From positions 11,569 to 75,568 of IMG/VR virus record IMGVR_UViG_3300013132_000041: DNA of 64,000 nt; one strand, 5' to 3'. Below the pieces are notes generated by a model. That model was not told where the DNA came from, did no database searches, and was given only the letters and a program-made list of their open reading frames with translations. The position numbers were made by a program, and so were the translations under genes. Positions 11,081 through 15,314 of this stretch are shown here, in pieces. The stretch's first letter is position 1. The number at the start of each line of letters is the position of its first letter. Source of the DNA: a virus.

Positions 11081-11702
11081 CTTCGATTTTACTGAGCATA
11101 AACTACAAAAATTAATTCCTCGAGTAAAAAATATAAGCGAATGGTACGAAGCTGTGTGCGATGCTCTTCCTCAATATCATATTAGTGATGTTGCTAGAGT
11201 TGCTGCATTTATTGCTCAGTGTGCACATGAGTCTGCAGGATTTACTGCACTATCAGAAAATTTAAATTATTCTGCTGATGGATTAAGAAAAATATTTCCA
11301 AAATATTTTCCTACTGCGGAAATGGCACAAGCATATCATCGTCAACCTGAAAAGATAGCTAATAGAGTCTATTCTAATAGAATGGGCAATGGAGATGAGT
11401 CAAGCGGTGAAGGGTATAAATTTAGAGGCAGAGGATTAATTCAACTTACCGGTAAATCTAATTATTCCAGATGTTCTCAGTTCTTATTTGAGGATGATAC
11501 TTTAATAAGAATGCCAGATGTTTTAGTTCAACCCTATTATGCCTTGCATTCTGCCTGTTGGTTTTGGTATGCAAATAAATTAAATGAGCAGGCAGATGCT
11601 CAAGATATTAAAACTTTAACTAAGAAAATTAATGGTGGATTTATAGGATTAGAAGATCGTATTAAACATTATAATCACGCTTTAGAAGTATTACAAGAAT
11701 AA
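11070..11702 (+). CDS. Glycoside hydrolase family 19 endolysin
   Basis: FIAQCAHES, ENLNYS, FRGRGLIQLTGKSNY, KINGG..GLEDR. Confidence 0.9.
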   Translation: MSFDFDFTEHKLQKLIPRVKNISEWYEAVCDALPQYHISDVARVAAFIAQCAHESAGFTALSENLNYSADGLRKIFPKYFPTAEMAQAYHRQPEKIANRVYSNRMGNGDESSGEGYKFRGRGLIQLTGKSNYSRCSQFLFEDDTLIRMPDVLVQPYYALHSACWFWYANKLNEQADAQDIKTLTKKINGGFIGLEDRIKHYNHALEVLQE

Positions 11703-12389: not shown

Positions 12390-12446
12390 ATGTCTATGCG
12401 AAGATACCCTCCCCTAAAAACATTTAAGCTAAAAAGGAAAAAACAA

Positions 12447-13022
12447 ATGCTGACTGTTGGTGATAATCTAGAACCGTTTAATATCGTTGGTGTAAAGCCC
12501 GGTGCTCTTACACCCGAAGGTGCCTTTGAGGACCTAACGGAACAATCTTTCCCTGGTAAGTGGAAAGTGATTATGTTCTATCCAAAATCATTTACGTTCG
12601 TATGCCCTACAGAAATCGTAGGATATGATAAATTAAATGGTGATTTTAAAGATCGCGATACAATCTTATTAATGGGTTGTACAGATAATGAATATTGTTT
12701 ATTAGCCTGGAAAAATCATCACGAAGATTTAAAGAAAACTAATTCATGGATGTTTGCAGATTTAATTAAACAATCGCAAGATTATAATAACGATCGCTAT
12801 GTCGAGAATGGTTTGGCTGCTACGTTAGGTATTTTGGATAAAGTAAATGGTGTACCTTTAAGAGCTACCTTCATTGTTGATCCAAATAATGTTATACAAC
12901 ACATAACGGTTAATAACTTAAATGTTGGTAGAAGCCCAGAGGAGACACTTCGTATTCTTGATGCATGTCAAACTGGAGAATTGTGCGCCTGTTCTAGGGA
13001 GATAGGTGAGGAAACACTATAA
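12447..13022 (+). CDS. ahpC: Peroxiredoxin AhpC
   Basis: FYPKSFTFVCPTE, GRSPEETLRILDA, ELCAC; start moved to ATG 12447 after AAGGA. Confidence 0.92.
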   Translation: MLTVGDNLEPFNIVGVKPGALTPEGAFEDLTEQSFPGKWKVIMFYPKSFTFVCPTEIVGYDKLNGDFKDRDTILLMGCTDNEYCLLAWKNHHEDLKKTNSWMFADLIKQSQDYNNDRYVENGLAATLGILDKVNGVPLRATFIVDPNNVIQHITVNNLNVGRSPEETLRILDACQTGELCACSREIGEETL

Positions 13023-13026
13023 CCCG

Positions 13027-13078
13027 TTGGGCAGACATAAATAAATAATTTAAACAGGAAAAATATATGTCTGCCCAA
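13027..13078 (+). promoter_or_regulatory. 13-bp hairpin over the endonuclease start, with a late-promoter-like box and the RBS in the loop
   Basis: TTGGGCAGACATA (13027-13039) is the exact reverse complement of TATGTCTGCCCAA (13066-13078); ATAAATAAATA and AGGA lie between. Confidence 0.8.
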
Positions 13079-13822
13079 ACACCGTATACTTATTATGTTT
13101 ATCACAAACCAACTGGATTGAAGTATTATGGTTCCAAATATGCTAAAAATAGTAATCCAAGTTTATTTTGGAAAAAAGATGGATACTTTACTTCTTCAGT
13201 TAAAATTCATAAATTAATCCAAGAATATGGGACTGATTCTTTTTTTGCCTCTGTAAGAAAAAAATTTAAAACACCGCAAGAAGCTTTAGATTATGAATAT
13301 AGATTTTTGAAAAAAGTTAATGCTTTAAAAAAATCAGATTGGCTTAATAAGAATATGGGTGGTAAAAAGTTTAGCAATTATGGACCAGCGAGCGAAAAAG
13401 CTCTTTTATCGCAAAAAAATAAAAAACAAACTAAAGAGAGTAACATTAAAAGATCATTAACTTTGAAAAATAGAAAAAAATCTGAAGAAACTAAATTATT
13501 AATGTCTTTGGGCCAATTAAGTAGACCCAAAGAACAAGAAGAAATTCGTAGAAATAAAATACGAAGTAAGGCAATAGGTAGATTACATAGTGATATTACT
13601 AAGCAAAAACTTTCTATATTAGTTGCCAATACTAAATGGATCAATGATGGCGTGTATCATAAAAAGGTTAATAAAGAGGATTTAAATAGTTATTTGAATT
13701 TGGGTTGGAAACAAGGAAGAATTTTAGAAAAAGTAATTTGCCCTCATTGCAATATATCCGGGGCAAAACACAATTTAGTTAGATATCATTTTGATAGATG
13801 TAAAAATAAGGATGATGAATGA
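13067..13822 (+). CDS. Free-standing GIY-YIG (Seg-like) homing endonuclease
   Basis: YTYYVYHKPTGLKYYGS..., YFTSS, basic NUMOD-like repeats, WINDG..GWKQGR, CPHC zinc finger. Confidence 0.8.
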   Translation: MSAQTPYTYYVYHKPTGLKYYGSKYAKNSNPSLFWKKDGYFTSSVKIHKLIQEYGTDSFFASVRKKFKTPQEALDYEYRFLKKVNALKKSDWLNKNMGGKKFSNYGPASEKALLSQKNKKQTKESNIKRSLTLKNRKKSEETKLLMSLGQLSRPKEQEEIRRNKIRSKAIGRLHSDITKQKLSILVANTKWINDGVYHKKVNKEDLNSYLNLGWKQGRILEKVICPHCNISGAKHNLVRYHFDRCKNKDDE

Positions 13823-14331
13823 GTTGGGTTGATAATTTAAAAGAAACTATTCCAGATTATGCCAAGGATACAAGACTTAATCTGGATGCAGTAATTAAGC
13901 GTAGCAGCATTCCAGCCAATGAGGCTGAAGCCATTGCTGTTGCAGCAGCATTTGCCACCGGTAACGTTAAATTTTGGACTTGGTTACATAGTGTGATTTT
14001 AGAACGTAATGAAGCAGATGCTGCACTTACGGCAGGAAGTATAATGTCAATGACAAATACTTGGTACCCCTATGTCGAAATGGCGGAAGATGATAACTTA
14101 AAAGGTCTTCCAGCGCAGTTAAGAATGAATGCTATTGCTAGTCATGGCGGTACTACTAAGGCGAGGTTTGAAGCATACAGTCTAGCCGCTAGTATTGTGG
14201 GTAAGTGTCATTTTTGCGTCAAAGCTCATTACGAGACTTTGAAAAAAGAAGGCTATACTACAGAACAGTTACGAGACATTGGCCGTATCGCTGCTGTAAT
14301 TACTGCAGTATCTAGAGTCTTGAATAACTAA
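13819..14331 (+). CDS. ahpD: Alkylhydroperoxidase AhpD
   Basis: IPDYAKDTRLNL, LRMN, ASIVGKCHFCVKAH (CxxC). Confidence 0.92.
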   Translation: MSWVDNLKETIPDYAKDTRLNLDAVIKRSSIPANEAEAIAVAAAFATGNVKFWTWLHSVILERNEADAALTAGSIMSMTNTWYPYVEMAEDDNLKGLPAQLRMNAIASHGGTTKARFEAYSLAASIVGKCHFCVKAHYETLKKEGYTTEQLRDIGRIAAVITAVSRVLNN

Positions 14332-14419
14332 TATATATTCATATAGTTGTATGAAGCAAGCAGAAACGTGCTGCGGACGGCGGTTCGATTCCGCCCAGGT
14401 CCACCAAAAAATAATTCGA

Positions 14420-14454
14420 GGAGTCAGTTATGGAGTCAGTTATGGAGTCAGTTA
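14420..14454 (+). repeat. Three tandem copies of GGAGTCAGTTA(T)
   Basis: 14420-14431, 14432-14443, 14444-14454; each has a GGAG Shine-Dalgarno and the first two lead into an in-frame ATG. Confidence 0.9.
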
Positions 14455-14612
14455 AAAAATTTATAGATGAACAATTAAACAAGGTTGATATTGATAAACA
14501 ACGAGAGTTGATTATAAAACAGTCTTGCGAAATTGAGCAACAAACTGAAAGAATCTTAAAGTTATTTTCTGAGGGGCCTGATTCTGGTTTCGACGGGGCA
14601 AATAGTAAGTAA
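14430..14612 (+). CDS. Putative 60-aa helical protein in the tmRNA intervening segment, overlapping the coding-piece 5' end
   Basis: GAGGAG RBS 6 nt before ATG; charged amphipathic sequence; translation unproven. Confidence 0.5.
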   Translation: MESVMESVKKFIDEQLNKVDIDKQRELIIKQSCEIEQQTERILKLFSEGPDSGFDGANSK

Positions 14613-14661
14613 GTGGACAACTCGTAAGGCGAAGGACGTAATCCTAGCAAACTAAATAGAC

Positions 14662-14706
14662 GCAAACAACGACTATTTCTATCAGGATCTTAAGCTAGTC
14701 GCTTAA
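14662..14706 (+). other. tmRNA tag reading frame: (A)ANNDYFYQDLKLVA*
   Basis: GCA AAC AAC GAC ... CTA GTC GCT TAA; AN.D start and small/hydrophobic C-terminus typical of ssrA tags. Confidence 0.88.
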
Positions 14707-14771
14707 ACCTGACGGGGTTTTGGCAGTTCACCTTGTTACCAAACGAACTGCCTCACACACAAGGAGATTCA

Positions 14772-15314
14772 ATGAAAAAGACAATTTTAGCATTAGCTTT
14801 AGCAACAGCTGCGGCAACTTCTCAAGCTGCTAATTATGTAAGTTTCGATGTAGATCAAGTTAAGGATACTCGCAACAAAGCAGAAAGTACTGCACAGTAT
14901 TTCCGTGCCGGTAAAGATATGGCTGGACTTAATTTGGATCTTCAGGTTCGAACAGCAGTTTTTGATAAAGGCGGAATGCTTAATAGTGTCGAAGTTACTG
15001 CAGGTAAAAACATTGCCGGTCTTAATGCATTCGGCGGTGTAGGTTATGACAATGGTTTTAATGGTAAAGTCAACGGTGATTTTACTTATGGCTTAGTCGG
15101 TCTCAAAGCAGGAGTTCCTATTGGTCCTCTATTCGCTTTTACTGGTGTTAAGACTCGAGTAAATTGGGACACTGATAATCCAAAGCAGACTGTTACTTGG
15201 TTAGGCGCCAGTATGCCTCTCAACAAAGCAGTTAGTGTTAGCGCCAGCATGAGTCGTTCTTTACAGGACATTCAAGAAAAAGCAGTTGGTGTTGGGCTAC
15301 GTGTAGCCTATTAA
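14772..15314 (+). CDS. Outer-membrane beta-barrel protein with signal peptide
   Basis: AAGGAG RBS; MKKTILALALATAAATSQA signal; alternating beta strands; C-terminal VGVGLRVAY beta-signal. Confidence 0.75.
   Translation: MKKTILALALATAAATSQAANYVSFDVDQVKDTRNKAESTAQYFRAGKDMAGLNLDLQVRTAVFDKGGMLNSVEVTAGKNIAGLNAFGGVGYDNGFNGKVNGDFTYGLVGLKAGVPIGPLFAFTGVKTRVNWDTDNPKQTVTWLGASMPLNKAVSVSASMSRSLQDIQEKAVGVGLRVAY

Follow-up and report, generated by a model that had tools for sequence, protein, structure and literature searches.

The segment between the two pieces of a permuted tmRNA gene in a T4-like phage very probably contains a real gene, a 60-codon open reading frame (ORF) that runs across the tRNA-type maturation site and ends inside the mature tmRNA. 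We consider it moderately probable that this read-through is a tolerated by-product of the codon phase of a cassette rather than an evolved sensor, and that the spacer is a slot for small-protein genes. The locus lies on IMG/VR virus record IMGVR_UViG_3300013132_000041 (75.6 kb, ~48% complete), in which T4-type baseplate, tail, and terminase genes are present; the window, i.e., the whole stretch of 64,000 nt analyzed here, comprises positions 11,569 to 75,568 of this record, and all coordinates below refer to it.

A permuted tmRNA with the tag ANNDYFYQDLKLVA, the only one in the window, is predicted by ARAGORN at 14314-14797, and the Rfam family RF04321 (tmRNA_permuted) matches at 14345-14706 with 110.1 bits at a cut-off of 47. 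The RF01850 model (beta_tmRNA) aligns over its full length (model positions 1-331) at 14306-14755 with 77.6 bits compared to a cut-off of 84 (E 1e-23), a score that is lowered because the 167-nt insert is costly. Judged by its sequence, this is an intact permuted tmRNA, probably of the betaproteobacterial type, with an acceptor piece (T arm, 3' acceptor strand, and CCA) located upstream of a coding piece (5' acceptor strand and tag frame) and a protein gene on either side:

13819-14331, plus strand: AhpD-like (CMD family) gene, the upstream neighbor (Pfam PF02627, 1.2e-12), used as the synteny marker for finding relatives
14306-14406, plus strand: tmRNA acceptor piece with P2 3' strand, T arm, acceptor 3' strand, and ACCA (RF04321, RF01850, ARAGORN, sequence)
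14379-14395, plus strand: T arm (read against the Rfam model)
14396-14402, plus strand: acceptor 3' strand CAGGUCC (read against the Rfam model)
14403-14406, plus strand: encoded ACCA (sequence)
14407-14573, plus strand: intervening segment of 167 nt, bounded by ACCA and G1 of the acceptor 5' strand
14574-14755, plus strand: tmRNA coding piece with acceptor 5' strand, P2 5' strand, pseudoknot region, tag frame, and terminal hairpin (ARAGORN, RF04321, RF01850)
14574-14580, plus strand: acceptor 5' strand GGGCCUG, pairing with CAGGUCC over 7 bp
14662-14706, plus strand: tag frame with its stop at 14704-14706, starting on an Ala resume codon and closing on a hydrophobic A/V-A end (ARAGORN)
14772-15314, plus strand: gene of a small secreted, probably outer-membrane-type protein with the SD AAGGAG, the downstream neighbor (ORF listing)

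Since the acceptor strands pair across the gap, the spacer is delimited to 14407-14573, and a tRNA-type 5' cut by RNase P would fall at 14573/14574. The third pair of the acceptor stem is G:U, matching the alanine identity element G3:U70, and the tags of relatives end in ...KLAA. No SmpB gene is encoded in the record, and the phage presumably uses host SmpB. The coding piece ends in a hairpin at 14723-14753 (GGCAGTTC...GAACTGCC) without a T-run that is directly followed by the SD of the next gene, unlike in other relatives where a clear intrinsic terminator follows the tmRNA. In one relative (L106), with a spacer that has a 33-residue membrane-peptide ORF, the 28-residue tag called by ARAGORN (EERNSS...) is implausible and probably stems from a mis-set resume codon. 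Circularly permuted (two-piece) tmRNA genes were reportedly described by Keiler, Shapiro, and Williams in 2000 and by Sharkady and Williams in 2004. Phage-borne permuted examples include those of Melnitz and the pelagimyophages (PMC9004378). Compared to bacterial two-piece tmRNA genes, the window has the same order of acceptor piece, intervening segment, and coding piece and shares the T arm, G3:U pair, CCA, tag frame, and stem-closed spacer, but it carries 167 nt with a conserved protein running into the mature RNA where the bacterial spacers sampled are 24-49-nt hairpins.

The following elements are found in and around the spacer:

14339-14665, minus strand: antisense ORF of 108 codons (ORF listing), judged spurious
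14408-14416, plus strand: closing stem 5' strand AAAAUAAUU (MFE and centroid folds)
14418-14423, plus strand: SD GAGGAG for the ATG at 14430 (sequence)
14420-14454, plus strand: 12-nt tandem repeat GGAGTCAGTTAT in 2.9 copies (TRF score 70, 100% matches)
14430-14612, plus strand: 60-codon ORF (ORF listing, homologues, dN/dS, AlphaFold2 pLDDT 84)
14432-14435, plus strand: SD GGAG for the ATG at 14442 (sequence)
14442-14573, plus strand: conserved core of 44 codons, two predicted helices (family comparison)
14560-14568, plus strand: closing stem 3' strand AGUUAUUUU, also coding for a conserved K-L-F (MFE and centroid folds)
14570-14572, plus strand: TGA of the conserved TGA(N)/G1 motif, out of frame (-1 frame) for the window ORF
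14574-14609, plus strand: ORF tail read from the tmRNA 5' end (sequence)
14610-14612, plus strand: ORF stop TAA, 39 nt inside the coding piece

A preliminary description of this locus had already pointed to the 167-nt spacer with its 60-codon ORF, to tandem SD-ATG units, to the ORF stop inside the coding piece, and to pairing between the spacer ends, and all of these were recovered at the same positions. The 12-nt repeat is perfect and yields GGAG, 6 nt, and ATG in two units, with ATGs at 14430 and 14442 that are in frame with each other, while the third unit ends in TTAA instead of ATG. Because of this duplication, the ATGs of the window lie at spacer positions 24 and 36, off the positions 10-14 that are usual among related spacers. 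The three other family members known at the DNA level (loci L082, L230, and L144) have the repeat as a single copy and their ATG at position 12-13. SD conservation is poor among them, with neither GGAG nor any other clear SD in L082 and L230 and an AAAGG within the stem in L144. The two canonical SDs of the window thus read as products of a lineage-specific duplication just outside the 9-bp closing stem. The protein P0008 (70% identical) begins with MEQVMEQV and its near relative P0007 with MEQV, parallel to MESVMESV in the window, and a start-region duplication creating an SD seems to have arisen twice. In both MFE and centroid folds, the closing stem is extended by AGGA/UCUU and UCAGUU/AACUGA pairing, and it is kept in L082, L230, and L144 via A-U/G-U and U-G/C-G changes; beyond the stem, the predicted folding of the spacer is not more stable than that of shuffled sequence (z -0.5). 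A promoter and terminator scan stayed at chance level, and its lone plus-strand hit (14320-14347) would initiate inside the acceptor piece. Two other candidates were discarded at this locus, the antisense ORF as a gene because its frame has 3 stops over the core in L144 and a -1 slip on a U-run before the junction that would reach the conserved UGA because the window has only four U's there.

Comparison across the family indicates that the ORF is very probably a real gene. Its 44-codon core is open in all 4 DNA-level members (the window, L082, L230, and L144) and in at least 17 protein clusters, and of the six frames, that of the ORF alone is free of stops in all 4 DNA members, with 3-10 stops in each of the other five. 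L082 has a 144-nt spacer with a core 96% identical to the window next to an OMP gene with merely 48% identity, L230 shares 77% amino-acid identity with the window ORF, and L144, with a different tmRNA body, has a 143-nt spacer in which the ORF shows 50% amino-acid identity to that of the window. For the window and L144, the most distant DNA member, we obtained a dN of 0.29 and a dS of 0.84 (dN/dS ~0.33); the first, second, and third codon positions account for 14, 7, and 17 differences, respectively. Among the window, L082, and L230, dN/dS is ~0.9-2.4 on just 5-12 changes, so selection is apparent only over the longer distance. Protein searches added seven clusters at 70-93% identity and a profile search nine more, down to ~36%; these protein-level members come from gene callers, which biases them to open frames, and the tmRNA context of P0002-P0017 is inferred solely from tails that correspond to a translated 5' end of the tmRNA. 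Such C-terminal tails (GPDSGFDG... or GPVTVSTG) are present in nearly all protein-level members. All indels are in-frame: P0014-P0016 contain an insertion of 8 codons, and 4 codons are duplicated both in the window and, as a parallel event, in P0008. Neither a metagenome protein-alignment scan nor a scan for the junction pattern retrieved further DNA members. Contigs from RNA libraries (metatranscriptomes) contain acceptor and coding pieces of relatives with loose ends that belong to other spacer classes; none lies over the window spacer, and they are uninformative on its expression.

The product is predicted by AlphaFold2 on the family alignment to form helices at residues 2-18 and 21-48 with a mean pLDDT of 84, followed by a tmRNA-encoded tail that is predicted to be disordered (pLDDT 55); the full-length product would end in ...KLFSEGPDSGFDGANSK. 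In the second helix, the invariant residues I21/I28/I42 and Q24/Q31/Q38/L45 follow a heptad spacing, and because of this Ile/Gln pattern the 44-residue core would probably form a coiled-coil oligomer. Database comparisons assigned it to no known family, with no Pfam family at E <= 0.1, no Foldseek match in the PDB, and scores of 0.90 or less, i.e., at chance level, in the ESM Atlas. A PHROG match to a dCTP deaminase (E 0.024 over 32 residues) was dismissed as noise.

An alternative account of these data is that the ORF is untranslated and the spacer a non-coding processing element, made of a closing stem and a linker, in which recent descent, AT-rich drift, and RNA constraint have kept the frame open. 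The dN/dS values near or above 1 among close members would agree with it, as would the lack of an SD in L082 and L230 and a spacer that beyond its closing stem behaves like a mere linker in folding. However, the frame is kept at 50% identity with omega ~0.33 while the other five frames have filled with stops, every indel respects the frame, and the heptad pattern comes with a confident helical model. Together with the evidence from related spacers presented next, these observations render an untranslated spacer distinctly improbable.

We collected 116 unique spacers (24-273 nt) of related phage tmRNA genes from IMG/VR and searched those of at least 75 nt for a spanning ORF, i.e., a forward ATG no more than 30 nt from CCA with a frame open to the spacer end. 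Such an ORF is found in 35 of 65 spacers, compared to 7.9 +/- 2.6 in shuffles (maximum 17 in 1000) and 7 on the reverse strand, an excess that argues against the untranslated account. These ORFs make up ~22 unrelated families, many of them small membrane peptides and one Cys-rich. A typical cassette has AAGGAG or AAAGG directly after CCA, its ATG at spacer position 10-14, and as its stop the TGA of TGA(T)/G1, and the window spacer is likewise stem-closed and filled by a forward ORF. Strong purifying selection in sister cassettes, such as a family of 24-residue membrane peptides with dN 0.02-0.17 vs. dS 0.5-2.7, is again difficult to reconcile with non-coding spacers. The Cys-rich (CxxC...C) family (L117, L163, L182, and L209; 101-107 nt) reads through the junction in the phase of the window and has dN 0.04-0.08 vs. 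dS 0.16-0.32 among close members.

Bacterial counterparts manage with much shorter spacers, which also argues against a pure processing role of 167 nt: 33 betaproteobacterial tmRNA spacers taken from genomes are 24-49-nt hairpins without an ORF that are closed by the AAGG...CCTT...G(A/G)T stem of the phage spacers. Since these ORF-free hairpins share the stem, the SD-like and stop-like elements of the phage cassettes look like co-opted parts of an ancestral structure. Fold z-scores of ORF-bearing and ORF-free spacers do not differ (medians -2.27 and -2.33), and the G+C content does (0.335 vs. 0.41). A T-arm-like element, GGTTC(A/G)A(A/T)TCC, which may be a tRNA or tmRNA remnant, occurs in some of the ORF-free spacers (the 82-nt class of L002:3588-3669 and L084, and the 95-nt spacer of L126). 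Compared to the other cassette families, the window family has no in-frame TGA at -4..-2 and an old, family-wide read-through, the SDs of the window arose by tandem duplication and are positioned outside the stem, and its product is predicted to be soluble and coiled-coil-like rather than a membrane peptide.

The crossing of the maturation site noted in the preliminary description extends to all 4 DNA members and almost all protein-level members; since it is common to the whole family, the read-through must be old and no recent accident. That a cut at 14573/14574 would leave a stop-less mRNA, itself a tmRNA substrate, holds by simple logic. The feedback circuit between tmRNA maturation and the small protein that had been suggested on this basis is logically sound, but our comparison lends it no support. 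In such a self-sensing arrangement, the RNase P cut would create a stop-less mRNA with a product that is tagged and degraded, so that protein levels would report tmRNA maturation or capacity, and stable protein would come only from precursors translated before cutting or when trans-translation is saturated. A stop before the junction is indeed absent from the 4 DNA members and at least 13 protein clusters over a dS of up to ~0.85, which could indicate selection for read-through, but RNA constraint on the closing stem and UGA(N) explains this absence equally well. At least 4 other unrelated cassette families read through too, and with its LVA/LAA terminus the phage tag resembles known degradation tags.

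The stop codon itself speaks against a sensor. The TAA at 14610-14612 sits in a 33-nt tmRNA block (14590-14622) that is identical in 32 IMG/VR contigs, and since most of these have non-coding spacers, this stop has not evolved for the ORF. The tail past the junction varies from 0 to 32 codons, with 8, 22, or 32 in other tmRNA bodies and 0-2 in P0014-P0016, which stop almost immediately after the junction. By phase, the ~22 cassette families split 10/7/5: ten stop on the TGA at -4..-2, seven are in the phase of the window (five of them reading through), and five are in the third phase, a distribution not far from chance; besides the ten, three cassette families end earlier still. Given that ten families stop before the site and all three phases occur, crossing is no general design, and we regard a self-sensing circuit as unlikely.

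The likeness to ArfA control that had been drawn in the preliminary description stands only in principle. Escherichia coli arfA is regulated through a stop-less mRNA (PMC10107115), and this precedent favors the circuit insofar as a cut within the frame could, by analogy, produce a non-stop message for tmRNA in the window as well. The two cases differ in that there is no sequence similarity, that the cut would be tRNA-type maturation rather than one by RNase III, and that the arrangement is not general among sister cassettes. The ORF product has no homology to ArfA in Pfam, and the profile search finds only its own family. A stronger version, in which the coiled-coil protein would accumulate only if tmRNA processing or trans-translation falls short and would thus form a phage-encoded analogue of ArfA logic wired into the tmRNA gene, appears quite unlikely.

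We therefore favor read-through as a by-product because the stop is borrowed, the tail is variable and disordered, and sister cassettes stop before the cut. Under this by-product reading, the gene would be carried on the tmRNA precursor, within which it would be transcribed since there is no credible internal promoter, and translation would start at either of the two SD-ATG units just inside the closing stem. The codon phase would leave the fixed UGA before G1 out of frame, and a ribosome on the uncut precursor would continue across the acceptor strand until it meets the first available stop, the TAA at 14610, adding a disordered and unselected tail of 12 residues. Translation would be mutually exclusive with tRNA-like folding and RNase P cleavage on any one molecule, and a precursor that is cut first would become a stop-less message and substrate for trans-translation. 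Recombination within the conserved tmRNA flanks would transfer the cassette from phage to phage.

A further possibility is that the excised spacer acts as a stem-closed mini-mRNA with a product that always arises by run-off and has the phage tmRNA tag added at its end, the tagged fusion being the functional protein. The architecture common to all cassette families, with an SD right after CCA and an end at the RNase P site, would suit such a molecule, and RNA-library contigs of relatives join spacers to mature parts, which merely indicates that such molecules, or contaminating DNA, exist. Against it, the stability of an excised spacer is hypothetical, a TGA one base before the cut would be a poor terminator on this RNA, and the tag resembles a degradation tag, so that we deem this scenario highly unlikely.

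Cassette behavior is also evident from the neighborhood. Syntenic relatives have the order AhpC, AhpD, tmRNA, and outer-membrane-type gene with AhpD 86-95% identical, and their mature tmRNA is nearly identical to that of the window, while the spacers they carry, hairpins of 74 or 82 nt, are unrelated to it and contain no ORF. One spacer class occurs with differing tmRNA bodies and one body with differing spacer classes, so that spacers behave as exchangeable cassettes. The comparison of spacers among relatives that the preliminary description had called for gives a split result, since the frame is open across the cassette family with dN/dS ~0.33 against L144 but the closest syntenic relatives are ORF-free and the SD is not conserved. 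A peroxiredoxin (AhpC/TSA) gene at 12390-13022 and the AhpD-like gene, of which IMG/VR contigs as long as 343 kb contain more than 590 relatives, adjoin the tmRNA in the window. Between these two genes lies a free-standing GIY-YIG/NUMOD-type homing endonuclease gene (13067-13822) that is also present in L004/L098 (64% identity) and missing in L002, L003, L102, and L112, where the AhpC and AhpD genes abut; located ~600 bp from the spacer, this endonuclease might promote co-conversion of the cassette. Upstream of the T arm, a T4-late-promoter-like TAAATA at -48/-47 is found in 30 of 121 unique upstream regions (e.g., L082, L083, L091, L106, and L203-L209), and others carry TTGACA-N17-TATAAT immediately ahead of the acceptor piece. 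Neither promoter type is clearly recognizable in the window, where the tmRNA and the AhpD-like gene may share a transcript.

Conserved ORFs in the 23S rRNA intervening sequences of Leptospira were reportedly found by Ralph and McClelland in 1993. Homing-endonuclease ORFs occur in tmRNA group I introns, and for intervening sequences the only contents given in the 2025 database paper on tmRNA are a tRNA-Ala gene and a repetitive element (PMC11915505). The window resembles the tmRNA-intron and Leptospira cases in having coding sequence in a segment excised from a stable-RNA precursor, but it involves no intron, self-splicing, or nuclease; tRNA-processing enzymes would carry out the excision, and part of the ORF lies within the mature RNA. 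In line with the earlier impression that the arrangement was undescribed, we found no published description of protein genes in tmRNA intervening sequences. As far as our literature search reached, a permuted tmRNA gene with a spacer that appears to serve as a protein-gene slot, here with a stop-less passenger, is thus unpublished.

As a stable RNA, tmRNA has entered the textbooks, and the spacer of the two-piece form has so far been treated as disposable. A conserved spacer gene would make the precursor a dual-function molecule that is both messenger and stable-RNA precursor. Because the end of the window gene, including its stop, is part of the mature tmRNA, the same nucleotides would be contested by translation and tRNA-type processing. 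It would also mean that elements of a structural stem (AAGG...CCUU...UGA) can take on the roles of ribosome-binding site and stop codon. With ~22 unrelated genes in one slot, these spacers would form an unannotated reservoir of phage microproteins missed by gene callers and RNA annotators alike, and the stop-less families would offer a cheap and direct handle on the coupling of phage protein output to ribosome-rescue capacity.
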